From assembly GCA_965208675.1 (NCBI GenBank), contig OZ242351.1, positions 4,768,001-4,832,000 on the forward strand: a DNA stretch of 64,000 bases. The letters are read 5' to 3'. A program made the translations under genes and the position numbers. Source of the stretch: Candidatus Poribacteria bacterium. GTDB lineage: Bacteria; Poribacteria; WGA-4E; PCPOR2b. The stretch's first letter is position 1; each line of letters begins with the position of its first letter. Positions 28,249 through 61,381 of the stretch are shown piece by piece. The notes below the pieces were generated by a model. That model worked only from the letters and a program-made list of their open reading frames with translations, was not told the origin of the DNA and searched no databases.

Positions 28249-30513
28249 ATGATGCAATTTACGTATTTTTTGCCAGGCTGGGCAGTTGCTCTAGCGATGG
28301 CAATTGTGGCGGGCGTTACGATTTTTGCTTACTTCCGTTTACAACGATCTCTCGGCCATGGACTTAGATATATCCTAATCGGGTTAAGGGTTGCAGCCGC
28401 ATCGGTATTGTTGTTATGTTTGTTAGCGCCGGTGGTGTCTGAGAGAATAAACGTTACCCCAAAGACTAATTTCCTGATTCTGTCAGACACTTCCCAAAGC
28501 ATGAAGTTTGACGATGTGGAGTTAGACGGTCAACAAACTGACCGTTTGACCCTTGTGAATCAGCTATTATTCAATCTGTCCAGCCAACTTCTAGAGGTTC
28601 TTACGAATCAATTTGAGGTGCATCTATACCAGTTTGATACGCAAGCGCAGAAAATCGCCAACCCGCCTGCGCCGCTTGAAGCAAAAGGACGATTAACAGA
28701 TATTGCTGCCTCAATTCAGGAAGTATTCAAAGAGTGGCGTGGTCAGCGGATCGCTGGCGTAATGTTGATTACTGACGGCGCCCATAACGCATCAGCGTTT
28801 CGATACGACGGTATCGCCGATATGCAGGTGCCCCTTTACACCGTCGGCGTTGGTAATCCTAAGCCCCGCAAAGACCTGAAAATTTCAAGACTTGAAGTGA
28901 GTCCAGTCGTTTACGTGGGACATGATGCGCCCATCCGTTTCACAGTTGAACATACAGGTTACGCGGGGAGCACGATTCGTGTTTCATTGATGCAGGACGA
29001 TCGTTTAGCCGACGCAGCCTTGATTACATTGAACGAGCGACCAACTCAGGAAATCGAATTCACTTTGGATCCCCAAAAAGAGGGTGTTTTTCAATATTCC
29101 ATTACAGTGCCGACTCTTCCCGATGAACTCACGCACATGAATAACGAGACGATCTTTTCCTTAAAAGTTGTCAAAACGAAGTTTCGTGTATTGTACGTTG
29201 ATGGGCGGCCTCGTTGGGAATATACATTTCTCAAACGCATATTGGAACGGGATGCTAACATTGAATCAACCTGTATGATAATATCGAATCGCACAAACCG
29301 CCAACTTCGCGGAACGCTGCTGGAACACACCAACCAGCACTACCCGCAAACAACCGCTTTGGACCGACTGCCGTATTTTCCGGATACGATTGCCAAATTA
29401 CTAACGTACGATGTGCTAATAATAGGGGATTTGCGATCAGCTACGTTGAATAAATCACAGCACGACGCAATTGTCGATTTCGTCGAAAATCACGGTAAGG
29501 CGGTTATCTTTCTCGGTGGACGAAACTCGCTTGGCGCCAAGGGCTTGAGGGAAACTGCTTTGGAACGCTTGCTGCCGATTGTAATGCCAGCGAACGGGTG
29601 TGCTGTTCGCGATGAGGACTTCAGTCTGGAACTAACCCAACAAGGAATCTACCATCCAATTATGCGCGTGGGAGAATCGCGAGCAAAAGTTGAAGCCATT
29701 TGGAGGGACATGCCGACGCTGCCACGATGGTTCGGTAACTTCCGTCTCAGGGGTGGGGCAACCACCCTTGCGGTTCACGGGCAATCTCGGGACGAAAATG
29801 CAATGCCAATCGTCGTTTTTCAGAGATCCGGTTTAGGTAAAAGCCTCCTTATTGCAGCTGAGGGGCTGTGGAATTGGGGATTCGGGGTGTGGGGGTTCAA
29901 GGAGGAAGATGACACCTATCCTCGTTTTTGGGGAGGGGCTGTTCGCTGGATGGCATCACAACCGTATGGAAAACCCATTAATCTAACGACTGATTTGACA
30001 ACCTATCTGGTTGGAGACACGGTTCAAATTACCGTTTACGCTTATGATGAGAGCTATCGTCCTCTGGCGAATGCGGCGTTCAATATTGACGTCATTCCTC
30101 CGGACGGGCATTCGTTCCAAGTTAGTGATGCTACGAGTTCACAAATTGCGGGTGTCTACACAGCTCAGTTTGAGGTCAATCAGAAGGGAAATTATCAGAT
30201 TCGCGCCCTGGGTGTCAAAGACTATTCTTCATTAGGCGAGGATTCGACAGAAATTTTCGTTCAGCCTCCACTTGCGGAGTTTGAAAATCCACATCTTAAT
30301 GAGCCGCTGCTACAACAATTAGCTGAAAAGACGGGCGGATTTTACACTCGGATTGGTGATGTGGAATCTCTGCCCAAAAAGATTAAAGATATTGAAGAGC
30401 GAGTTTTTACTAACCAAGAACGAGATTTGTGGAACACGCCTATCATTTTGATTCTTGCGGTGGGTTTGCTGGGAGCAGAATGGTTTCTGCGAAAGCGAAG
30501 AGGCCTTGTGTAA
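28249..30513 (+). CDS. Membrane-anchored vWA + Ig-like + GATase-like domain protein
   Basis: Two N-terminal TMs; MIDAS DTSQSM, TDIA, LITDGAHN; VLYVDGRPRWEY; C-terminal TM ending EWFLRKRRGL. Confidence 0.85.
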   Translation: MMQFTYFLPGWAVALAMAIVAGVTIFAYFRLQRSLGHGLRYILIGLRVAAASVLLLCLLAPVVSERINVTPKTNFLILSDTSQSMKFDDVELDGQQTDRLTLVNQLLFNLSSQLLEVLTNQFEVHLYQFDTQAQKIANPPAPLEAKGRLTDIAASIQEVFKEWRGQRIAGVMLITDGAHNASAFRYDGIADMQVPLYTVGVGNPKPRKDLKISRLEVSPVVYVGHDAPIRFTVEHTGYAGSTIRVSLMQDDRLADAALITLNERPTQEIEFTLDPQKEGVFQYSITVPTLPDELTHMNNETIFSLKVVKTKFRVLYVDGRPRWEYTFLKRILERDANIESTCMIISNRTNRQLRGTLLEHTNQHYPQTTALDRLPYFPDTIAKLLTYDVLIIGDLRSATLNKSQHDAIVDFVENHGKAVIFLGGRNSLGAKGLRETALERLLPIVMPANGCAVRDEDFSLELTQQGIYHPIMRVGESRAKVEAIWRDMPTLPRWFGNFRLRGGATTLAVHGQSRDENAMPIVVFQRSGLGKSLLIAAEGLWNWGFGVWGFKEEDDTYPRFWGGAVRWMASQPYGKPINLTTDLTTYLVGDTVQITVYAYDESYRPLANAAFNIDVIPPDGHSFQVSDATSSQIAGVYTAQFEVNQKGNYQIRALGVKDYSSLGEDSTEIFVQPPLAEFENPHLNEPLLQQLAEKTGGFYTRIGDVESLPKKIKDIEERVFTNQERDLWNTPIILILAVGLLGAEWFLRKRRGLV

Positions 30514-30658
30514 AAGCAATGAGAAGTTTTCTGAATGCAGTAAAATTGTAGTTAGCTGAAAACATCTAGCCAGTCGGCGCATTTGTACCTCACGGGAATA
30601 ATGCCGGTTAAGCTGAGGTACACATGATTGACGGCCGCAATACTGATGTTGCCGTGAC

Positions 30659-31336
30659 ATGATTAAAAATCGAAAAAAGGTGTTCTTTTCATTTATCTGG
30701 GGATTAGCCGCCCTAATCGTATCCGTCCAAGCGGCGGGCGATAAATTCGTGATAGCCCAAGTTCAATACGGCGGCGGCGGAGATTGGTACGGCGATCAGA
30801 CAGTTATCGCCAACTGGCTTAAGAAGCTTCGCAGCGCCGCCAATATTGAGACTGCCGACGATCGCGTAATCACAAAGCTAACGGATCGTAACCTATATCA
30901 ATATCCGATGTTGTACATTGTCGGGCACGGTAATGTCCGCCTTACTGAGAAAGAGGTCGAGGCATTGCGTTTTTATCTAATGCGCGGTGGCTTTCTCTTC
31001 GCGAACGACGACTATGGGCTTGATAAGAGTTTTCGACGTGAAATGAGTCGTGTGTTCCCGAATCAAGAACTTCAGCCAATACATAATTCACATCTAATCT
31101 ATCACTGTTTTTATGATTTTCCGCATGGCCTGCCGAAAATTCATGAGCATGATGCTGAACCGGCGCAAGGCTTTGGGCTGTTTCACGAGGGGCGGATGGT
31201 GGTTTATTACGCCTATAGCTCAGACATTGGGGATGGGTTGGAAGATTCGGAAGTGCATCCCGATGACTCTAATGAAGTTCGTCAACTCGCCGCGAATATG
31301 GCGGTTAATATCGCAGTTTATGCGCTAACACATTAA
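30659..31336 (+). CDS. DUF4159 domain protein (secreted)
   Basis: Signal peptide; YGGGGDWY, YPMLYIVGHG, GGFLFANDDYG, GLPKIHEHD, DIGDGLED, NIAVYALTH. Confidence 0.9.
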   Translation: MIKNRKKVFFSFIWGLAALIVSVQAAGDKFVIAQVQYGGGGDWYGDQTVIANWLKKLRSAANIETADDRVITKLTDRNLYQYPMLYIVGHGNVRLTEKEVEALRFYLMRGGFLFANDDYGLDKSFRREMSRVFPNQELQPIHNSHLIYHCFYDFPHGLPKIHEHDAEPAQGFGLFHEGRMVVYYAYSSDIGDGLEDSEVHPDDSNEVRQLAANMAVNIAVYALTH

Positions 31337-31426
31337 TGGCCGCTAGTGCCAGCAAAAATTATTCTAACTACGTATCGCTGACCACTAATACCGCTGGAGA
31401 TGAGGGGGAAGAACAGAGGCTATAAC

Positions 31427-34400
31427 ATGTCAAATCCAACGCCTGATGCGCGCTATAGCGTAATAAAAAACCGCCTCCGACTGCTGCGAACTCAGTGGAG
31501 ATTGTTGCTGTTTTCTCATAATTTTTTGCGATGGCTTGCCTTACTCGCACTAAGTCTTGCTGCGGTGCTCATCGCCGATTCGTTAATGCAACTACCTAGC
31601 TTTCTACGAATGGGGCTGCTGTTGCTGTGGTTAGGACTTACCGTGTGTACAGCGTTTCTTTATCTATTTCGCCCGATTTTAAAAAGGCTTAGCGATAATC
31701 GTGTAGCGGCATATGTTGATGCCAGCAACTCCGATTTTGAAAACCGTTTATCGAGTGCGGTCCAACTTGAACCAGAGTTGAAAGCTAACGATTTTGGGTA
31801 TGCCATAGGCTTCATTGAGAAACTCACCCAACAGGCGCATCAATGTATCGACCGAATCGAATCAAAGCGAGTTTTCGCGAAGGAGTTGATTGAACTCAAG
31901 AAAAACGGCGGATTAGCCGCGGGCGCATTGGTTTTATTGATTCTGGTAAACCTTATTTTCCCTGCGGCATTGCAAAATTTCGTGCAAGCATTCAATGAAC
32001 TTCCAACGTCCCCCCAAGAAGATATTGCCGTGCAAATTGATGAAATCGAGCCCGAAAATACCCTTGTTCAATCCGGAGAAAACATCTCTATCTCCGCTAA
32101 AGTGTTTGGACATTTTGACGCCCCAGTACATCTAAACTATCGTGCGGTACAGGCTATGAATCCGGCGAATCAGCGAACTGAGCACCCTGCGTCGTCTTCC
32201 GACAAATGGCGGTCGATTTTAATGGAGCAGAACCACATGGAGACTAGCTATCACGTTGAATTGAAAAATGTTACGCAGTCAATGGATTATTATATCAGGG
32301 TGAATGAAGCCGAGTCAGCACACTACCGTATTACTGTTGCGCACCGTCCAATCGTTAGGCATTTCCAGCTTAAACTTAGCTTTCCCAGATACACCCAGCT
32401 CTCTCAGCACGTCTTGGAAGAGAATATCGGCGACATCAGTGCGCTAATTGGCACCGGGGTACAGTTCGATGGCGAAAGCAATAAGCCCCTTGCTTCAGCT
32501 ACGCTAATCTTTGAAGAATCACCGGCTGTCAAGCTCAAAGTTTTAGACGATAACCAACTAGTCGGGAAATTTATTGTTCAACGCAGCGAAAAATACCATG
32601 TTGAACTGATCGACGCCGATGGCATTTCGAATTCACAGCCGATTGTCTATACGATTCACACCATTAAGGATGCCGAACCGAAAATTGAAATTGTTGAGCC
32701 TGGGAAAGATGTTACGCTTGATGAATCTATGACTGTAAACCTCCAGATCGATGTTGAGGATGACTATGGTGTACAAGAGATTCGGTTGGTTTATCGAGTT
32801 GAAGGGCACAATGAAGGCGATAAGATTGTCTCGCTTAACGCATTCAATCCACCCCAAACTACCGCCTACACCGCGTTTGGTTGGGATATTGATTCAATAG
32901 GGCTATTTCCGGAAGACATTGTTACATATCATGCGGAAGCAATTGACTCAGATAATGTTACTGGACCAAACGTAGGCAAATCTATCACCTACTCAATCCG
33001 TTTTCCATCTGTGGCAGAACTATATGAAGCAATTGAGGCTGAGCAGGAATTAGAGCAACACGGGGTGGAAGCCTTATTTAGGAGGCAAGCTGAAGTGAAA
33101 GCAACAATTGATGACCTGCTAAGCAAAATTCGCAAGAGTCAGCAGTTTACGCTCAAAGACGAAAAGTTAGTAAAACAGGTGCTTGAAACGCAGAAACAAA
33201 TTGAGCAAACCTCAAAGAATATTATCGAAGATATGAAGCAAACTGCCGAGCGGATGGAGAGGAATCAGTTGTTTGATTTGCAGACTATCCAGAAGTATCA
33301 GGAATTGCAAGAACTGATGGAGCAGGCGCTGTCAGAAACGCATAAAGAACTTCTGCGAAAATTGTCCGAGGCGTTGCAGCAGCGGCAACTGTCCGAACAA
33401 GAAAGAAAATTGATGGAGACGAATTTCGACCAAGAACAGTTTCTTCAGCAGTTGGATCGATTGAAAGAGCTCTATCAACAGTTAATTCTTGAACAAAAAT
33501 TGGAAGCGGCGGCTACGCAGGCTATAGATCTCGCTAAACGTCAGGAACGCTTGATGGACACGGTAAAGAATCTGATTAGTCAGGCCGAGCAATTAAATGA
33601 GGGGAAAGAAAAGGGACGAGAGAATCTTGCCGAACAAGAAAACCGAATTATGGAAGGCCTAGCGTCACTCCACGAAAAGCTTGATGAACTAGTGGAAAAA
33701 ATGTCGACACGAGTAAATCTGCAACGTGTCGCTGATGAAATAAAGCGGTTAAACCAGGCCGCACGAGAACGGGAAATCGCTCAAAAACTGCAATCCGCAG
33801 GTTCAGCAATTCAGCGGTCTCGCATGCATGCTGCAATCGTACCAGGTCAGCAGGCGCAGGAAGGACTGAATGACCTGGCACAAGGATTAGCAAACGCGAT
33901 GGAATTCATGGGGGCGAACGCTGATGAAGCTTTAGCGGCAATGCGAGAAGCCGTACGCGATGGCCTATTTCTCTCCCATCTGCAAGAAGGAGTAATTGAT
34001 GGGACTGAAGCACTCTTGAATTCGGGGCATGGACGTTATATCGAAAGTGAAATTAAACGGTTACAGCGATTGTCAGCGAGTGAATTGAGCATTTCATCGG
34101 GTATCGAGAATCTTGCCAGCGGACTTTGGGATTTAGGCAAGGAACAGATGCAAATCGATCTGAAAATCGTATTGAGGCTGCGCGCTGCAAGCGATGCCTT
34201 TGAGAGATCGGCGCGCGCTTTAGAAGATCGAAAACCAAGTCTGGCAATGCCTATACAAAAGCAGGGATTGGCTGATCTCAATAAAGCAATTTTTGATATC
34301 ATCAAGGCAATGAACCAAATGAACCAAATGAACCAACAGATGGGTATGGGCGGATTGCAGAGTATGCTGGAACAGCTCCAGGAAATGGCACAGAATCAAC

Positions 34401-34918
34401 AAAATCTGAATGAAATGGCTGAAAACCTACATGAACAGATGCGGCAGCAAGGACGGACACCGGAGATGAAACAGTTGCTCGATCGTTTGGCTTATGAGCA
34501 GGAGATGATACGTGAAGCGACCGAACGGCTAGCAGAAATGATGGGAATGATGCCACAAGTACTCGGCGATCTGAATAGTGTGTCCGCGGAAATGAAAGAA
34601 GTAGAAGCAGAACTCCAACAAGGCAACCTGAATCAACGCGTGTTAGAAAAGCAGCGACGGATTCTAACCCGAATGCTCGAAAGTTCAAAATCGTTACAGA
34701 AACGAGAAGTTAACAAAAGGCGCAAAGGTAAGGTCGCTAAAAATCCGGTGGATTCCACAATAGATGCACCTGCACTCGATTCCAAATTGCTAGAGACTGT
34801 CCGCCAGCTTGAGTCTGACCTAAAATCTGGCGGAAGAGACGGGTTTCCTCTTCAGTACCGCGGGTTGATTGAACGGTATTTTAAGGCATTATCTCGGGAA
34901 ACACAGAGAGGATTGTAG
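31427..34918 (+). CDS. DUF4175-like membrane protein (TM - Ig-like - long Q/E/M-rich coiled coil)
   Basis: N-terminal TMs, ENRLSSAVQL, DDYGV, AIDSDNVTGP, long coiled coil, C-terminal PLQYRGLIERYFKAL. Confidence 0.85.
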   Translation: MSNPTPDARYSVIKNRLRLLRTQWRLLLFSHNFLRWLALLALSLAAVLIADSLMQLPSFLRMGLLLLWLGLTVCTAFLYLFRPILKRLSDNRVAAYVDASNSDFENRLSSAVQLEPELKANDFGYAIGFIEKLTQQAHQCIDRIESKRVFAKELIELKKNGGLAAGALVLLILVNLIFPAALQNFVQAFNELPTSPQEDIAVQIDEIEPENTLVQSGENISISAKVFGHFDAPVHLNYRAVQAMNPANQRTEHPASSSDKWRSILMEQNHMETSYHVELKNVTQSMDYYIRVNEAESAHYRITVAHRPIVRHFQLKLSFPRYTQLSQHVLEENIGDISALIGTGVQFDGESNKPLASATLIFEESPAVKLKVLDDNQLVGKFIVQRSEKYHVELIDADGISNSQPIVYTIHTIKDAEPKIEIVEPGKDVTLDESMTVNLQIDVEDDYGVQEIRLVYRVEGHNEGDKIVSLNAFNPPQTTAYTAFGWDIDSIGLFPEDIVTYHAEAIDSDNVTGPNVGKSITYSIRFPSVAELYEAIEAEQELEQHGVEALFRRQAEVKATIDDLLSKIRKSQQFTLKDEKLVKQVLETQKQIEQTSKNIIEDMKQTAERMERNQLFDLQTIQKYQELQELMEQALSETHKELLRKLSEALQQRQLSEQERKLMETNFDQEQFLQQLDRLKELYQQLILEQKLEAAATQAIDLAKRQERLMDTVKNLISQAEQLNEGKEKGRENLAEQENRIMEGLASLHEKLDELVEKMSTRVNLQRVADEIKRLNQAAREREIAQKLQSAGSAIQRSRMHAAIVPGQQAQEGLNDLAQGLANAMEFMGANADEALAAMREAVRDGLFLSHLQEGVIDGTEALLNSGHGRYIESEIKRLQRLSASELSISSGIENLASGLWDLGKEQMQIDLKIVLRLRAASDAFERSARALEDRKPSLAMPIQKQGLADLNKAIFDIIKAMNQMNQMNQQMGMGGLQSMLEQLQEMAQNQQNLNEMAENLHEQMRQQGRTPEMKQLLDRLAYEQEMIREATERLAEMMGMMPQVLGDLNSVSAEMKEVEAELQQGNLNQRVLEKQRRILTRMLESSKSLQKREVNKRRKGKVAKNPVDSTIDAPALDSKLLETVRQLESDLKSGGRDGFPLQYRGLIERYFKALSRETQRGL

Positions 34919-54185: not shown

Positions 54186-54215
54186 ATTATACCAAACCCG
54201 ATTGTTAGATGTCAA
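54186..54215 (-). promoter_or_regulatory. Consensus sigma70 promoter of the str/ribosomal superoperon
   Basis: Minus strand TTGACA-18 nt-TATAAT with extended TG, ~200 nt upstream of rpsL. Confidence 0.75.
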
Positions 54216-54352
54216 GGTTTTTCTTAGCTTTTTTGAGTTTTAACACGTTTTTTCTTAAGCTGTGACCTAACAATGCCAAAATTTCCTTTGCAACGCTCTC
54301 ATCAGAGCGTTGCGAAGGACTCAGCGAATCAAATGAAATTCGGAACACACGC

Positions 54353-56044
54353 TTATTTTTTATAAGCGGATCGATCGGTATTTCCACCATATTTCATCGC
54401 ATACACAAACAGATTGACCATAAACCGGTGTACATCAGCGGAACGGCGCATCCTTAACATCGTCCGACTCGGGATTTCCGCTGTCTCCATCGCACAGAGA
54501 TAATCCTTCCGATTGTACAGCACTGCGACACGACGCCCAATCGTAATCGCCTTGTGAAACTTAAACTTTGTAACTTTAGGGTTATTTTCGGATCCCCAGT
54601 ACTCGTCGGATCCATTCGGCGGGACGGATAGCTTGTAATAGATGGAATATATCTCATGGCTATGAGGTATAGACTGAAGCGGATATTCTGGCAGGATTTT
54701 TTTCAATTCATCAGCGACACGCGCAGCGAACAATCCCTTGAACCCGCAATCATCGAAAAATAGCAGCCCGCCGCGTTCCACGAGGTATTTTCTCATCGCC
54801 GACCGTTCTGCAGGAGTAAAACCTACCATCCACGGCTCGCCCCGCATTAGATTACGCGTTGTGGTCAGTTCTTTATCGTGTCCGGTCATAACAATGATGG
54901 GTGCATCAAGGATTCGCGGATCTGTCATTCGCATGGCGCCGCCCTCCAGTTTCATATCCGCACGCAGGCGAGTGTTGTCCGATAACCACCGCATGAAACT
55001 CGGCAGCGCAGAAGGGTCTTGCCACCAATCTGCTAGTGAATGTATTAACCGTGTGAAACGGATGTGACCCTGTATGTCTGCGCCCTCACCCTCTAGAATA
55101 GCGCCTAACTTATCATCAGGCACCGTAGTGATTTTAGCCAACGGGTCGTCTCCAGCGCCACCGGCACCAGCGTCGGTTGCCCCAACTGCGCCCACAAGCG
55201 AGTCAATACCGCCCGTTCCGCTTCGACCGCGTCCGTTTATTGCCTCTGTACCTGACCCGCGCCCCTTATCGGGACCGCGACGCCCGCCGACCGCGGGAGC
55301 GATGACCTCCTCGTTACGCTTGGGTTGGATGTCTGCCACCGTCTTTACAGGACTATCTACAATCGTATCCGGAACTAATGGGGACACGTCCATCGACACG
55401 CGGCTTGGGGCAGCCGCGACAGGTCTAGCAACTCGCGGAGCAGACGACACTCGAACAGGTTGGGAAATCTGTTGCGCGGGTTGGCGCACCGGTTCAGGCG
55501 GTTTGGGCTTGATCTTTTTCAACCGTCTAACCTTCGGCTGCGGCTTCACCATCTCGACCGCAATCGCATCTTCAATTTCATCCGCGTCGTCCCTTGCAAA
55601 CAGGAAAATAGCGAACGCCAAGATAACGTGCGAGACCACAGAGATTACCATAGAATTGCGCGCAGTGCGACTTTTTGGGGTTACTACCGCGATCGCTGTT
55701 TCCGCCGCTGGAGATTGTGTCTCGTAGGTAGGTGCGCTCAGGTAATAGGTCTGTCCGCCGCAATCCACTTGCATTTGACCCTCCGGGAGCATGCGGAACT
55801 CGGCGCGTGCTCCGGCACGGATTACCTCACTCAGCCGTCTGACGGGCAGGATTACCGCCCCCGCTTGCGTAACCTCCGCGTCAATTGTAAATTTTGTGTC
55901 TGCGGTTGAAAGTTCTAGCTTATCGTTCCCGATGCTACGCACACGCACATCGGAGATAGACTCTAGCTGATTATCCCGGGCCGCCTGCGACTGGAGAGAC
56001 TTAATTGCTTTCAGAAGGTCCGCTTGTTTCGCTGTGAATTGCAT
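54353..56044 (-). CDS. Fusion protein: DnaN domain-I-like / TonB-type TM anchor / Pro-Gly-rich linker / DUF4159
   Basis: aa 1-103 align by eye with the beta-clamp N-terminal domain; TM aa ~132-150 with SVVSH; C-terminal DWWQDP, VMTGH, GGLLFFDDC, NLFVYAM match DUF4159. Confidence 0.8.
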   Translation of the reverse strand: MQFTAKQADLLKAIKSLQSQAARDNQLESISDVRVRSIGNDKLELSTADTKFTIDAEVTQAGAVILPVRRLSEVIRAGARAEFRMLPEGQMQVDCGGQTYYLSAPTYETQSPAAETAIAVVTPKSRTARNSMVISVVSHVILAFAIFLFARDDADEIEDAIAVEMVKPQPKVRRLKKIKPKPPEPVRQPAQQISQPVRVSSAPRVARPVAAAPSRVSMDVSPLVPDTIVDSPVKTVADIQPKRNEEVIAPAVGGRRGPDKGRGSGTEAINGRGRSGTGGIDSLVGAVGATDAGAGGAGDDPLAKITTVPDDKLGAILEGEGADIQGHIRFTRLIHSLADWWQDPSALPSFMRWLSDNTRLRADMKLEGGAMRMTDPRILDAPIIVMTGHDKELTTTRNLMRGEPWMVGFTPAERSAMRKYLVERGGLLFFDDCGFKGLFAARVADELKKILPEYPLQSIPHSHEIYSIYYKLSVPPNGSDEYWGSENNPKVTKFKFHKAITIGRRVAVLYNRKDYLCAMETAEIPSRTMLRMRRSADVHRFMVNLFVYAMKYGGNTDRSAYKK

Positions 56045-56081
56045 AAGGTATTCCTTTTACTTTTACTGATGGTTTTTATGT

Positions 56082-57728
56082 TTATCCCATGTAGAGATTG
56101 CGCGATTGGAAGCCCATCGCCCTACCACGCCAATGGTGAACATCTGCATAATCCGACTTTAGCCGTACTGCTTCGTCAAAGTCCGCTATCGCTGCGGTGT
56201 ATTGTTTTAACCAATATCTTGTCCTTCCGCGCCAGTAGTAAGCATCAGCAAAATCCTTACTGAGCCTTAGCACCTCGTCGAAGTCTGAAATCGCTGCGGA
56301 GTATTGTTTTAAACGATACCTTTCCCGACCACGCAAGAAGTAACCATTGGCATCCGGACTCAAGCGTATTGATTCGTCTAAGGCTTTCGCCTGACGACAT
56401 GTGTTATCGTATCGTCCTACACATTCCTTCGCGGAATTACGCCAACGGTAGGCATTCAAACAATCGGGATTCAGGCGTATTGATTCATCAAAGTCCTGAA
56501 TAGCAGTTGCATATTGTCCTAACCCAAAATTTGAATAACCACGAAAGTAGAAGGCAATGGCAAGTGCTTCGTCAGTATGGTTATAGAGTAAGAGTGGTAT
56601 TGTTTCGTCTAAATCCTGAATGGCAGCTTCAAAATGTCCGTACTCAACCTTTGCTATACCACGCCAATAGAGGACATCTGCATAATCCGAATAACCCGAA
56701 CCACCCGAATAAACAGACTTCAATTGTATTGCGTGATCAAAGTCCGCAATCGCTGCGAAGTATTGTTTTAAACAATATCTCGTCCTGCCACGCCAGTAGT
56801 AAGCATCAGCATAATCCTTACTAAGCCTTATCACCTCGTCAAAGTCCGTTATCGCTGCGGAGTATTGTTCTGACCAATACCTTTCTATACCACGATCGTA
56901 GTAGATCCTACGGCACTTGTCATAGGCATCTGTATGATTCGGATTCAGCTGTATGGCTTCCTCAAAATCTGCTATTGCTGTGCTGTCTTGTTTTAACCTC
57001 CACTTCGTCATACCACGCCAATAATAGGCATCCGCATAATCAGATTTCAGTTGAATTGCTTCGTCGAAGTCCGTTATCGCTGTGGAGTATTGTTTCAACA
57101 AATTCTTCACCTTACCACGCCAGTAGTAGCCTTCCGCCCAGTTCGGATTTAGCCGTATTGCTTCGTCTAAATCCTGAATAGCGGTAGCGCCTCCGTCTAA
57201 ATGGGCTTTTACCCGACCACGCCAGCAATAGGCTTCAGCATAGTCTAGCTTAAGTCCAATGGCAGCGTCGAAATCCTTGATTGCTTCGGCATATTGCCCT
57301 AACTTTACTTTCTCCACACCACGCGCAAAGTAGCTAACAGCATGGGCTTCTCTATCCTGTTGCTCCTTCCGTGCTTTTTCCTGACGTTCTCGTTCCTCGC
57401 GCTCCTTTTCCCGACGTTTTCTTTTCTTTTGTTCCCTCGCCTTTTGTTCTTGGCGTTTCCTTTTCGCACGTGCTCTCGCTTCTCGTTTTTCGTGCTCTCT
57501 TTCTCGCCGTGCTTCTTCCGCTCTTGAGGAATCGTATTGCACTTGTTGGTAGGCGTTTGTAATCACCTCATATGCGTCTTGGACAAGTAAAAAGCGTTGT
57601 TTTGCGCCAGGGGAAGGGTCTTTGTCTGGATGTATGACTTTCACAAGGTCACGATAGGCTTTCTTGGCGTCGGCGAGTGTCGCGTTAGATTCCAATCCCA
57701 AAATACGCAATGCTTCGTCTGGTGTCAT
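56082..57728 (-). CDS. J-domain (DnaJ-like) + charged coiled coil + TPR-repeat protein
   Basis: ALRILGL...AKKAYRDLVKVIHPDK (intact HPD)...AYEVI; R/E/K-rich linker; about ten 34-aa TPRs (AYYWRG...QYSAAIADFDEAI). Confidence 0.9.
   Translation of the reverse strand: MTPDEALRILGLESNATLADAKKAYRDLVKVIHPDKDPSPGAKQRFLLVQDAYEVITNAYQQVQYDSSRAEEARREREHEKREARARAKRKRQEQKAREQKKRKRREKEREERERQEKARKEQQDREAHAVSYFARGVEKVKLGQYAEAIKDFDAAIGLKLDYAEAYCWRGRVKAHLDGGATAIQDLDEAIRLNPNWAEGYYWRGKVKNLLKQYSTAITDFDEAIQLKSDYADAYYWRGMTKWRLKQDSTAIADFEEAIQLNPNHTDAYDKCRRIYYDRGIERYWSEQYSAAITDFDEVIRLSKDYADAYYWRGRTRYCLKQYFAAIADFDHAIQLKSVYSGGSGYSDYADVLYWRGIAKVEYGHFEAAIQDLDETIPLLLYNHTDEALAIAFYFRGYSNFGLGQYATAIQDFDESIRLNPDCLNAYRWRNSAKECVGRYDNTCRQAKALDESIRLSPDANGYFLRGRERYRLKQYSAAISDFDEVLRLSKDFADAYYWRGRTRYWLKQYTAAIADFDEAVRLKSDYADVHHWRGRAMGFQSRNLYMG
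56178..56869. repeat. Internal direct repeat of TPR-coding DNA (56178-56308 and 56739-56869)
   Basis: Hand alignment gives 14 mismatches in 131 nt, offset 561 nt; ATCGCTGCG recurs at 102-nt spacing (56188/56290 and 56749/56851). Confidence 0.85.
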
Positions 57729-57784: not shown

Positions 57785-60700
57785 TTATCTGAGGATCGCC
57801 ATCTTTCGAGTCGCAGAGAAGCGGTTCGCGCTTAGCGTATAGAAATAAATTCCGCTCCCCACACGCTCCCCTAGGTCATTCCGCCCATCCCAATAGACCG
57901 CCTTGCTTGGGCTTTCGTACACGTCAGCCTTTTTGTTGCCGGATTCGATAGTTCTCACCAGGTTTCCACTCCGATTAAAGATGTTAACGGTGACTTTTGC
58001 ATCCTGCGCCAAGCGATACGGTATCCACGTTTCCGGGTTGAACGGATTTGGAAAATTCTGACCGAGTTCATTCATGAACCGCACCGTTTGCGGATTGGCG
58101 TTTTCAAGATGGGTTAGTTCTCCAAACACCGTTGGATCGTTGACCGAAAGTTCAAACAGATGTTCGTTAACCTTGAATATTTGGAGTGAGTAGAGATCTG
58201 CAACATAAACCGCGTCGTGGATGACCGCCAATTCCGACGGGAAGCGCAAGTTTTTGTAACGTGAAACCAACTCAAGATTGCGTATATCCACGATTTTAAG
58301 GGTTGTTCCATCTAGCAAGAATAGATAATCTCCACTTACTTTGGCATCAATCGGCAACCCATCCGTTTCATATTGCGCGATGCGAAACGGCCGCCGCGGA
58401 TCGCTAACGTCCAGAATCTGCACGCCGGAGCGGCTGTCAAGCACATACGCCCGGTTCTCAGCGACAGTCACATGTGTTGCATTGCCGTTCGTTTCGTAAC
58501 TCGCAACGGCGCGGGGCGCGGCTGGATTCTCTATGTCGAATATTCGTAAGCCCCCATCAAGGGCGGCGACGTAAGCGTACACACCGTCAATTGCCGATCG
58601 ATAGGCGTTCCCAGGCATACGTTGGCGCGCAACGACACGAATTCGGTTGAGGTCTCGCACATCAATGACGACGAAATCGCCTGCGCTGACGTAAGCGTAT
58701 CCGTTGTCAATCTCAATGCCCACCGCCGGTTCAGACGTTGAAATTCGCGCAATTGTGATGGGACGGATGACATTCCGCACATTCATGACGAATACTCCCC
58801 GTTCACCGCCCGCGATGTAGGCATGCCCGTTAAAAACTTGAACATCCGCAGCGGTTCCATCAATCGGTATGAATTGTGTTAAGGCCGCATCAAACGTGTC
58901 CTTTATGTCAACAACCTTCAATCCGCCGCGCCCATCAGCGATGAAGGCCTTCCGTCTCCCGTTTTCGCCCTGAACGATGTCAAGACCATAAGCTTCACCT
59001 GAAGCGACATGGCGATGCAACCACTGCGGACTACTCGGTCGGCTGACATCAACGGCATGCAAACTCCCGCTTCCATCCGCGATGTATGCAATGGTAGTTC
59101 CGTCGTTGGGTGTGTATAGGTCCACTCCCACTGCACTTCCGGTTATGGATTGACGGGCGACGAATTTAGGGCGGAGTGGATTACGAACGTCAATGAGATA
59201 AAATCCCGCCTGCACGTCGGTCAAATAGACGAACCCATCTTGGAATTTTATGCCATTTGAAGTTCCGGGTGTGCGCAGCGTCGAGATTATTTTTGGGTTG
59301 AATCGATCGCGTACATCGACAACTCGAAAGTCCCCCGATGCAACATAAACGTATCCGTCTTCGAAATGAAAATCGAAGCCGACAATGTCTATTTTACCAA
59401 CGATTGCGGGGATGTCGATTCGTTCAAAATCAAGAATTTGAAACCCTTGATTTCGATCACTCAAATACACGGTAGGACCTTCAACCCAGACATTCAGGGC
59501 TTCACCGAGCGTCTGAAACGCGCTAATCGGTTTCGGTTCGATTGAACTGTGCAATTCGTGTAAGTTATATATCAAGAGTCCCTCTTCACTATCAACTATG
59601 TAAGCATGCCCATTAGTTACCTGAATTCGATGAGCGAAGGTGAAACCCTTGACGGACTTCACGAGCTGCGGTGCCGCTGGTCGCCGAACATCAACAAGTT
59701 GAATGCCTTCCACTCCATCTGCGATGTAGGCTGTCCCGTCGTCAACGGCGGCATCTTGTGCGTTACCCGGTGTAGCAATTTCCCCGGTTCGCACTGGTTC
59801 TGTTGGGTTTTCGAAATTGAAGATTTCCAGTCCCCAGTCGCTCGCGGCAAACGCGTAATTCTCGACAACGACTACATTCTGATAGCTGCTAGATAGGTGT
59901 ACCTGACGCATCGGTTCCAGCTTATAGGAAATAGTTGGCAGTTTCTCGATTGGCTGCGAACGATTGCCAACGGTTCGCGTAATTTTGCCCGGCGCAACGA
60001 TTGGCAAATTAACCGGACGCGGCGCACCAACAACAATCCCGGAATTCCCATCAGATGTTCCTGCATACCGAAAAGATTGCGAGGTTGCAGTAGTTGCCAC
60101 TAGCATGACCTGATCCGACGGATTCAAATTGTTCAGCTCAAGGCGGGCATTGTCGTATTCATCAAATTGAAGCCGATGAATCATTGGCGAGCCGCGTTGC
60201 GGTATATGCACAACTTGTGCATACATTTCCCCATTGCCGGCTCCATCTAGGGCAATTTCAAGTTTAGGTGATAGATTCTGATAGGATACATAACGAACTC
60301 CCCAATCATCTAGGTTGTCCAATCGAATCGTGGGATAGCTGTTAACACGACGTTCAACGCCTCTATTGACGCGCTTATTTGGCAGGTTTTCATATCCGTA
60401 ATTGGCGCCGCGCCTGATGTCGTTGACGAAGTTAGCAATCGCCCAGTTTTGAAAAATATCGGCAAACCGTGCTGACCTACCTATCGACCCTAAAGCCGAA
60501 TTAATTCCGTCTATACCGAGCAGATCTTGTCGTGCAAGTTCACGAATGAACGCCGCGCCGCCGTAATTCTCGAATGCGTATAGCAGCAGCATGAAAGCAG
60601 CCCCGTAATAGACATCGCGGGTATTTCCAGACGTCAACGAAACGCTTGGATCTCTTAAATAACCATCGACAAAGATGTTGTGGACATTTCCGTAGATTGC

Positions 60701-61381
60701 CCATTCTGCGAACGACGCTATCCCCTCTTCCAACCAATTCTCATCGGTTGTTCCACCATTCTGATACCAATTGGCGAGGTGGGCAAATTCGTGGGCGAGC
60801 AGGGCGAGGAGGATAAAACGCCCCCGCTCCTTGAGCAGGTACACATCGGCAAAGATAATCTCGCGCCGGTTGCTATTGAAATCAGTCGGACGTTGATCGG
60901 TCGGTGAGAAATAACCGCCGATGTCTTGAGCTGAACCATTCAATCCCACATCGTGTATTAATAGTGTTACTCGGGCATCCCGGTCTAAGCCCGGCTTCCA
61001 TTCGCTGCCAATCCACCGGTGAACTTGCGGGTAGATTCGCGAATCAAATTCAGCTGCAATATCCTGTGCTTGTATTTCGTTTACTATACCGAGCACCGAA
61101 TTTTCGACGTAGATGTAGATATGCTCGCCGATGGCAATGCAAGTGCCTTTCACTAATTGTTCGGGGATATGTGTATAAAACCGTTCAATCTGCCCGAGGT
61201 GTATTTCAGGTGCCGGAGCGGCAGAAATTTCCGGCAATTGAAGAGCCGAGTGCGTATGCTGGGTGAGTTCCGGCGTTCCGCAGCGCCAATGTCCGCCATA
61301 AGGTGGATGCAGATGGATGGGTTGCGCGCAGACTTGATGAGCGATGCAACAAAAATATAAAAACAAATCGCAGCAACGCAT
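57785..61381 (-). CDS. Secreted zinc metallopeptidase (M30/InhA-like) + LVIVD repeats + FlgD-Ig/T9SS-like C-terminal domain
   Basis: Signal-like N-terminus, RCGTP, GGYF, LAHEFAHL (HExxH), WLEEG; many AYIADG.G.QxxDV..P..P repeats; C-terminal QNFPNPFNPETWIPY...WDGRN...SGIYFY...TRKMAILR. Confidence 0.88.
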   Translation of the reverse strand: MRCCDLFLYFCCIAHQVCAQPIHLHPPYGGHWRCGTPELTQHTHSALQLPEISAAPAPEIHLGQIERFYTHIPEQLVKGTCIAIGEHIYIYVENSVLGIVNEIQAQDIAAEFDSRIYPQVHRWIGSEWKPGLDRDARVTLLIHDVGLNGSAQDIGGYFSPTDQRPTDFNSNRREIIFADVYLLKERGRFILLALLAHEFAHLANWYQNGGTTDENWLEEGIASFAEWAIYGNVHNIFVDGYLRDPSVSLTSGNTRDVYYGAAFMLLLYAFENYGGAAFIRELARQDLLGIDGINSALGSIGRSARFADIFQNWAIANFVNDIRRGANYGYENLPNKRVNRGVERRVNSYPTIRLDNLDDWGVRYVSYQNLSPKLEIALDGAGNGEMYAQVVHIPQRGSPMIHRLQFDEYDNARLELNNLNPSDQVMLVATTATSQSFRYAGTSDGNSGIVVGAPRPVNLPIVAPGKITRTVGNRSQPIEKLPTISYKLEPMRQVHLSSSYQNVVVVENYAFAASDWGLEIFNFENPTEPVRTGEIATPGNAQDAAVDDGTAYIADGVEGIQLVDVRRPAAPQLVKSVKGFTFAHRIQVTNGHAYIVDSEEGLLIYNLHELHSSIEPKPISAFQTLGEALNVWVEGPTVYLSDRNQGFQILDFERIDIPAIVGKIDIVGFDFHFEDGYVYVASGDFRVVDVRDRFNPKIISTLRTPGTSNGIKFQDGFVYLTDVQAGFYLIDVRNPLRPKFVARQSITGSAVGVDLYTPNDGTTIAYIADGSGSLHAVDVSRPSSPQWLHRHVASGEAYGLDIVQGENGRRKAFIADGRGGLKVVDIKDTFDAALTQFIPIDGTAADVQVFNGHAYIAGGERGVFVMNVRNVIRPITIARISTSEPAVGIEIDNGYAYVSAGDFVVIDVRDLNRIRVVARQRMPGNAYRSAIDGVYAYVAALDGGLRIFDIENPAAPRAVASYETNGNATHVTVAENRAYVLDSRSGVQILDVSDPRRPFRIAQYETDGLPIDAKVSGDYLFLLDGTTLKIVDIRNLELVSRYKNLRFPSELAVIHDAVYVADLYSLQIFKVNEHLFELSVNDPTVFGELTHLENANPQTVRFMNELGQNFPNPFNPETWIPYRLAQDAKVTVNIFNRSGNLVRTIESGNKKADVYESPSKAVYWDGRNDLGERVGSGIYFYTLSANRFSATRKMAILR

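Follow-up and report, generated by a model that had tools for sequence, protein, structure and literature searches.

A 64,000-nucleotide (nt) stretch of Candidatus Poribacteria DNA, called the window below (GenBank assembly GCA_965208675.1, contig OZ242351.1, positions 4,768,001 to 4,832,000), carries on its reverse strand a gene for a 563-residue protein in which a homolog of domain I of the beta sliding clamp (DnaN) precedes a TonB/TolA-type membrane anchor and a DUF4159 domain (Table 1). The window belongs to a closed genome of 4.89 Mb, where the gene is flanked by the str ribosomal operon, with the rpsL start 374 nt downstream, and by a gene for a J-domain/TPR protein. Translation begins at an ATG that is preceded by four in-frame codons and then a stop, so that the open reading frame (ORF) spans 567 residues. 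Full-length orthologs and a paralog cover the whole ORF at 97–80% identity; close homologs bear the source label Candidatus Poribacteria, and the sequencing runs with a matching stretch are mostly labeled sponge metagenome. A sequence-only reading of the window had already described a cytoplasmic domain followed by a transmembrane (TM) helix, a stalk and DUF4159, and had called the architecture unfamiliar. The boundaries determined here bear out that order, and full-text literature searches returned no published description of a clamp domain I joined to a TonB-type anchor and DUF4159.

Table 1. Parts of the studied protein, its upstream neighbor, and clamp-gene arrangements elsewhere in Poribacteria. 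Unprefixed coordinates refer to the window; prefixes L and G denote loci and genomes, respectively. aa, amino acids; pLDDT, predicted local distance difference test score.
Feature	Coordinates	Strand	Basis or remark
Whole ORF (563 aa)	54353..56044	-	clamp-domain-I-like domain, linker, TonB-type anchor, Pro-rich spacer, DUF4159
aa 1-105, cytoplasmic, homologous to beta-clamp (DnaN) domain I	55730..56044	-	profiles, BLASTP, model, Foldseek
aa 106-130, variable low-confidence tether ending in basic K, R, R	55655..55729	-	pLDDT <50 for aa 109-130
aa 131-152, single TM helix of TonB/TolA type	55589..55654	-	model helix 127-152; hidden Markov model; BLASTP
Ser135-His139 codons, Ser-x3-His part of the SHLS motif	55628..55642	-	invariant in 29/29
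aa 153-328, acidic juxtamembrane segment, conserved I-x-V-E-M-V, Pro/Lys-rich then Gly-rich disordered periplasmic spacer	55061..55588	-	pLDDT <50 for aa 152-328
aa 329-550, DUF4159, periplasmic by topology	54395..55060	-	PF13709, E 5.3e-28
J-domain + TPR protein gene, upstream, co-directional, 37 nt gap	56082..57728	-	Pfam DnaJ and TPR matches
ECF sigma-DnaN ORFs	L014:1462-3192(-), L015:4-1746(+), L018:38-1825(+), L019:9-1736(+), L022:122-1849(+)		L014 Pfam-confirmed
Shorter sigma-DnaN forms	L020:102-1562(+), L021:1258-2625(-)		look truncated
DnaN-FtsZ ORFs	L016:1066-3186(-), L017:926-3007(-)		L016 Pfam-confirmed
Tandem DnaN examples	G097:C1:3364754, 3366077; G075:C2:4290901, 4292203; G018:C21:28530, 29815, 31358

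Residues 1 to ~105 are a true homolog of DnaN domain I, and the homology ends there. By BLASTP, this domain aligns with the genome's own DnaN (367 aa, adjoining dnaA) residue 1 on residue 1, with 29% identity over 106 columns (E 1e-11). A family hidden Markov model (HMM) built from 29 relatives and searched against the 13,742 ORFs of at least 70 aa in the genome returned the two fused paralogs and then DnaN alone (E 1.7e-18, 1-108 on 1-107). A nine-sequence profile built from our loci and searched against 1.84 billion proteins gave 906 matches at E≤1e-3, headed by the family itself and followed from E 1.7e-12 by DnaNs of ~365–378 aa, again aligned from residue 1 (1-108 on 1-108). All 42 matches of the 29-sequence profile to PDB sequences are beta clamps. 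The AlphaFold2 model of aa 1-115 (pLDDT 82.7, predicted TM-score 0.73) has a beta-alpha-beta-beta-beta topology, twice, and every PDB entry listed by Foldseek for this model is a bacterial clamp, with query TM-scores (TMq) of 0.64–0.77 over ~111 columns and of 0.72–0.77 among the top 25 ranks. Profiles, BLASTP and fold thus agree with the earlier claim of a collinear match to domain I only, and the predicted structure recovers the clamp fold for which that reading had suggested looking.

The curated models see the same domain less clearly. PF00712, the DnaN N-terminal domain, aligns aa 1-77 to profile positions 1-81 of 120, and the match that had been expected does appear when aa 1-103 are searched alone (E 3.8e-4), but its 21 bits fall below the cut-off of 24.4; TIGR00663 likewise stays under threshold (E 5.3e-5, 22.3 bits against 137.65). 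Among the 29 relatives, 15 match PF00712 at E≤0.01, and one relative, P0124, barely clears the cut-off with 24.9 bits. No match to PF02767 or PF02768 (clamp domains II and III) was found in the ORF, which therefore has no polymerase-binding pocket and could form no ring on its own, and the genome search found no separate domain II/III fragment able to complete a split clamp. In short, the N-terminal domain shares sequence and fold with DnaN from the first residue, whereas the protein as a whole differs from DnaN in lacking domains II and III, in having lost the hallmark motifs discussed below, in being tethered to the membrane and in scoring far under the curated cut-offs. Of the minor profile matches, those of 70–191 aa belong to the same clamp-domain/DUF4159 family as fragments or frameshifted pieces, and P0132 (3341 aa) proved to be a LapA-repeat adhesin and hence a repeat-driven false positive.

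The fusion could in principle be an assembly or annotation artifact, with a piece of dnaN wrongly joined to some unrelated gene, an explanation that we consider refuted. Contigs from runs of three other studies bridge the junction at nt 55600-55800 with 0 indels (they cover nt 55587-55780, 55622-55775 and 54965-56150), as the coverage check proposed with the sequence-only reading would have it, and the real dnaN lies beside dnaA, 1.57 Mb away. Moreover, ORFs of 564–590 aa that start with the domain (at residue 1) and end in DUF4159 occur in 8 of 121 sampled Poribacteria genomes, namely all four genomes of the same genus, each closed, and G001, G052, G063 and G080 from three further genera. One contig each from runs X1 and X7 joins position 54508/54514 to 55014 and so skips ~500 nt of the DUF4159 region; only 30 letters support the short side of these joins, which are probably cross-talk between paralogs. 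A second copy of the gene, 81% identical, lies at 3.04 Mb in the same genome (L023:6877-8565(-), equivalent to G000:C1:3036876-3038564).

Homologs of the protein are present in all 121 sampled genomes, and among 121 database homologs the clamp domain is carried by 39 and missing from 82. Relatives without the domain had been named beforehand as a finding that would tell against it; the domain itself stands, and this distribution marks it therefore as accessory to the core function of the family. In a FastTree phylogeny of the C-terminal 270 residues, the 39 carriers are basal and paraphyletic, fall in several lineages and require at least six state changes, a pattern suggesting that the clamp domain is probably ancestral to the orthogroup and was then repeatedly lost or replaced. 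Some apparent losses may be truncated gene calls, such as P0013-P0016 and P0063 inside clades that carry the domain. The ratio of nonsynonymous to synonymous substitution rates (dN/dS) within the genus is 0.17–0.39 for the clamp domain against 0.03–0.04 for DUF4159, so that the clamp domain is under purifying selection, looser than that on DUF4159. Elsewhere, a 29-residue remnant with an internal TGA, 62% identical to clamp-domain aa 49-77, was seen at G038:C1:4367268-4367354(-), where it may be what is left of a wrecked second copy.

Comparison of 27 distinct N-domains with 16 Poribacteria DnaNs revealed that hallmarks conserved in the latter are lost in the former, including the R-N-T-L-P-I-L-S-N block, T-D-L-E and the G-L-P-x-x-E-F-P connector. 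What the N-domain retains is the first helix (L-L-K-A-I) and the last-strand pattern G-x-Q-x-Y-x-L common to DnaN domain I. To judge from these alignments, the lost hallmarks argue for divergence away from clamp duty. An origin from the phylum's own DnaN was considered but gained no support: the best-scoring DnaN representatives are just 27–51% identical to the genome's own DnaN, and the top 20 are no nearer to it (mean identity 34%) than the other 69 (33%). A divergent DnaN-like paralog in the genome, considered as a closer relative or partner, was rejected as the source of the N-domain, which it matches only at E 0.047–0.059.

If the N-domain nonetheless still acted on the clamp, the tethered domain I would pair with a monomeric or opened beta clamp at its domain III edge to cap it, keep it open or park it at the membrane, and would thereby couple replication or repair to the envelope. 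We regard this account as unlikely. It draws on the real DnaN being the nearest protein in the genome to the N-domain, on the preserved last strand and on the phylum's repeated fusion of clamps to other machines (described below), but the DnaN hallmarks are gone, the N-domain evolves with a dN/dS 5–10 times that of the remaining protein, and 82 of the 121 relatives manage without it. A closed beta-clamp dimer, moreover, offers no free domain III edge. The gene neighborhoods contain only faint hints of a link to DNA. In two other lineages the ortholog adjoins a DNA-damage gene, a divergent Y-family DNA polymerase in G001 (L027:10300-11421(+)) and a convergent SRAP abasic-site peptidase in G063 and G052 (L028:10531-11199(-)), but these neighbors vary by lineage, are absent in the gene's own genus and in G080, and may be there by chance. 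Across the neighborhoods of the genus, G001, G063, G052 and G080, no consistent link to replication was found. A conserved set of operon partners was rejected as well, as the surroundings formed by rpsL and the J-domain/TPR gene hold within the genus only and differ in those four genomes; J-domain/TPR homologs lie upstream of orthologs only in L003-L005, that is, within the genus.

The C-terminal domain identifies the family to which the protein belongs. The DUF4159 domain matches PF13709 over the full profile (1-202 of 202) with 98.4 bits against a gathering threshold of 25.9, all 29 relatives match PF13709 too, and the top Foldseek match of the head is 4i66 (E 2.6e-8). The genome holds 13 DUF4159 matches at ~10 loci. 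One of these, in the window itself, is a canonical copy of 225 aa (30659-31336 (+), E 3e-57) whose signal-peptide-like start indicates secretion; the genes on either side of it in its cluster (28249-34918 (+)) encode a membrane protein of 754 aa and a DUF4175 protein of 1172 aa. The studied protein and canonical DUF4159 proteins (e.g., PDB 4i66, Hoch_4089, and the window copy) thus share the family PF13709, but the canonical kind is small, secreted and part of a cluster that contains DUF4175, whereas the form studied here is anchored via a TonB-like stalk. The invariant residues of its own sub-family include two cysteines, the first of which, Cys433, is a Tyr in the window's canonical copy. 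A general Cys nucleophile in DUF4159 was rejected on this ground, as Tyr stands in the canonical copy where the sub-family has the Cys of its D-D-C-G motif. Read as a TonB-like transducer with a DUF4159 head, an interpretation developed below, the protein would belong to a Poribacteria-specific expansion.

Between the two folded domains, the full-protein model contains one helix (aa 127-152) followed by ~175 disordered residues. The sequence-only reading had recognized a TM helix and a Pro/Gly-rich stalk, both of which are present, but had overlooked that the helix carries a TonB/TolA-type Ser135-x3-His139 anchor and that the linker is TonB-like. Both residues are invariant in the 29 relatives with an N-domain. 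In the motif called SHLS (Ser-X3-His-X6-Leu-X3-Ser), it is the Ser and His that contact ExbB/TolQ in cryo-electron microscopy (cryo-EM) structures (PMC12215075). The similarity to TonB extends beyond the motif: BLASTP aligns aa 124-209 with aa 29-108 of P0122, a TonB_C protein encoded just ahead of the paralog, at 33% identity (E 9e-7), with the Ser and His in register and the two spacers aligned. Searched against the 13,742 genome ORFs, an HMM of aa 120-182 yielded 17 matches at E<0.1. These comprise the genome's two TonB_C proteins (E 4.3e-3 and 5.1e-3), a protein of 300 aa whose gene directly follows an ExbB gene (E 7e-4) and four further DUF4159 paralogs; the other matches include several proteins with different C-termini, all showing an S-x-x-x-H helix.

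The topology is that of an N-in protein. Lys and Arg precede the helix, the basic end of the poorly conserved tether marking its cytoplasmic side by the positive-inside rule as read from the sequence, and Asp and Glu follow it; no N-terminal signal peptide was found in the protein. Given this charge pattern and the signal-peptide-like start of the canonical DUF4159, the clamp domain is therefore placed in the cytoplasm and DUF4159 in the periplasm. Motor genes are available in the genome, with ExbB (PF01618) matching at three places (strongly at two) and ExbD (PF02472) at two, and the paralog begins 4 nt inside the end of the TonB_C gene (locus entry L023:6877-8565(-), L023:8577-9446(-)). TonB and TolA are thus matched in the N-in single TM helix with Ser-x3-His, the acidic juxtamembrane segment, the Pro/Lys-rich spacer able to span the periplasm, the presence of ExbB/ExbD in the genome and the tandem of the paralog with a TonB_C gene. 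Unlike TonB and TolA, the protein has a DUF4159 head, a 105-aa folded cytoplasmic domain in place of a short tail, and no adjacent exbBD. As a separate observation, ~15 ORFs of the genome combine a Ser-x3-His anchor and linker with varied C-termini, against two strong ExbB loci; examples in G000 are 4491577-4492800, 2309816-2311039, 2618195-2620138, 4059659-4060927 and 1926320-1927357, two of the ORFs being near-identical 407-aa copies.

GltJ (AgmX) of the Myxococcus Agl-Glt gliding machinery offers a precedent for such a layout. GltJ is described as a TonB-like protein with a cytosolic region, one TM helix, a flexible region and a periplasmic TonB-C domain, its cytosolic ZnR and GYF domains docking cytoplasmic platform proteins (PMC11135422). 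The likeness is one of architecture only, comprising folded cytosolic N-terminal domains, a single TM helix and a flexible periplasmic region; GltJ differs in its ZnR and GYF domains and its TonB-C head. The GltJ model NF033761 aligns with aa 99-238, in the TM and spacer region, at E 0.018 and 14.2 bits, far from its cut-off of 450, and no gliding genes were seen near the studied gene. By their defining features, then, the protein is not a DnaN, a TonB or a GltJ; it is a DUF4159 protein.

Taken together, these features suggest an inner-membrane, TonB/TolA-like transducer of force or signal, coupled to ExbBD or TolQR, with a DUF4159 head and with the clamp domain as an accessory cytoplasmic docking module, an interpretation that we put slightly above an even chance. 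The Ser-x3-His face of the TM helix would dock on the ExbB/TolQ stator of a proton-driven motor, as TonB and TolA do, so that the anchor would couple to ExbBD or TolQR; the long, proline-rich disordered spacer would span the periplasm, and DUF4159 would take the place of TonB_C as the head. The protein would represent one basal sub-family of a Poribacteria-wide expansion, in which an exapted clamp domain I on a flexible tether of ~25 residues replaces the short cytoplasmic tail. Rather than acting as a DNA clamp, the domain would localize or gate the transducer, docking or self-associating in the cytoplasm through its two free edge strands, and would be analogous in this respect to the cytosolic effector domains of GltJ. 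Reuse of the fold as an interaction module, which the sequence-only reading had offered as its fallback, is the proposal that fits best.

Several observations weigh against this transducer interpretation. No exbB or exbD was found beside the studied gene or its orthologs. The Leu and Ser positions of the SHLS motif are Ile146 and Ala150 here, and in the wider family the Ser position of the Ser-x3-His pair is Ala or Thr in ~36 of 112 helix-bearing sequences (a crude pattern count that includes a few mis-assignments). The similarity to TonB is confined to the TM and proline-rich region, where composition may inflate scores, and the E-values to the two TonB_C proteins are modest (~5e-3). Neither TonB_C (PF03544) nor TolA domain III was matched in the protein, the two TonB_C matches of the genome lying elsewhere; with a head that is not TonB_C, there is therefore no nameable outer-membrane partner. 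Finally, full-text searches returned almost no literature on DUF4159 and no description of its function.

Some of these points would also suit a passive anchor: the helix would keep an idle, inherited Ser-x3-His, the protein would simply be a DUF4159 protein tethered in the periplasm, and the N-domain would be a relic in slow decay. The missing exbBD neighborhood, the Ala or Thr that some family members have in place of the Ser and the position of the N-domain as the fastest-evolving folded part would all be accommodated. Nevertheless, we find this highly improbable, as the His is kept in essentially all helix-bearing relatives, Ser and His are both invariant in the 29 N-domain forms, and the N-domain keeps a confident fold and a dN/dS well below 1 across lineages just 25–39% identical.

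What the clamp domain binds can be framed by its predicted edges. In the model, an isolated clamp domain would expose two unpaired edge strands, with which a neighboring domain pairs in all known clamps; the candidate partners would be another copy of the domain itself via these free edges, the domain III edge of the real clamp, or another partner. Head-to-tail self-association, from a dimer up to a six-domain ring, could cluster the anchors with no link to DnaN, and the coexistence of two domain-bearing paralogs in the genome would be compatible with this. We nonetheless hold it to be quite unlikely, as in the cryo-EM study one ExbBD motor is bound by a single copy of TonB (PMC12215075). A more ambitious version, in which the tethered domain pairs edge to edge with an opened or monomeric beta clamp through domain III of the latter, or forms a clamp-like ring at the membrane with copies of itself, and so directly wires replication or repair to a periplasmic machine driven by the proton-motive force, strikes us as decidedly unlikely; if true, it would be one case of a phylum-wide habit of clamp fusion, beside the ECF sigma-DnaN and DnaN-FtsZ proteins described below.

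To our knowledge, clamp domains are otherwise found only within closed six-domain rings. A solitary, conserved and selected domain I that a TonB-type transducer carries at its cytoplasmic end would, if borne out, represent a different use of the clamp fold and add to the few TonB-like proteins, such as GltJ, that have effector domains in the cytosol. At 105 residues and with a confident fold, the domain provides a handle on what free clamp-domain edges bind, and the system as a whole provides one on the periplasmic role of DUF4159, a widespread domain almost without literature.

Other clamp fusions were encountered in the phylum (Table 1). In other Poribacteria genera, ORFs of 575–595 aa carry an extracytoplasmic function (ECF) sigma factor (regions 2 and 4) fused before a complete three-domain DnaN, with about ten more such entries in the phylum listing, and ORFs of ~700 aa carry a complete DnaN fused before FtsZ (tubulin GTPase and FtsZ_C). 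Both kinds of fusion suggest that Poribacteria are a site of repeated sliding-clamp rewiring. In two genera, many genomes have two or three full-length DnaN genes in tandem. The genome studied here also holds a very divergent three-domain DnaN-like ORF (G000:C1:2987797-2989131(-)), with 22% identity to DnaN across domains II-III (E 1e-9), which adjoins a 939-aa ORF and lies near BMC-shell-like (bacterial microcompartment) and transposase-like ORFs, these neighbors having been read by eye.

Two further ORFs lie close to the gene in the window. The J-domain/TPR gene and the studied gene are co-directional with a 1198-aa LVIVD-repeat protein gene (57785-61381 (-)) whose product ends in a C-terminal sorting domain of FlgD-Ig/CHU_C type, with gaps of 56 and 37 nt along the three genes. 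On the downstream side, a 61-aa ORF (54205-54390 (-)) overlaps the last 38 nt of the studied gene. No Pfam match was found for it, and the other three genomes of the genus keep it at 44–54% amino-acid identity; this ORF could be a small gene, or else merely conserved leader DNA of the str operon.

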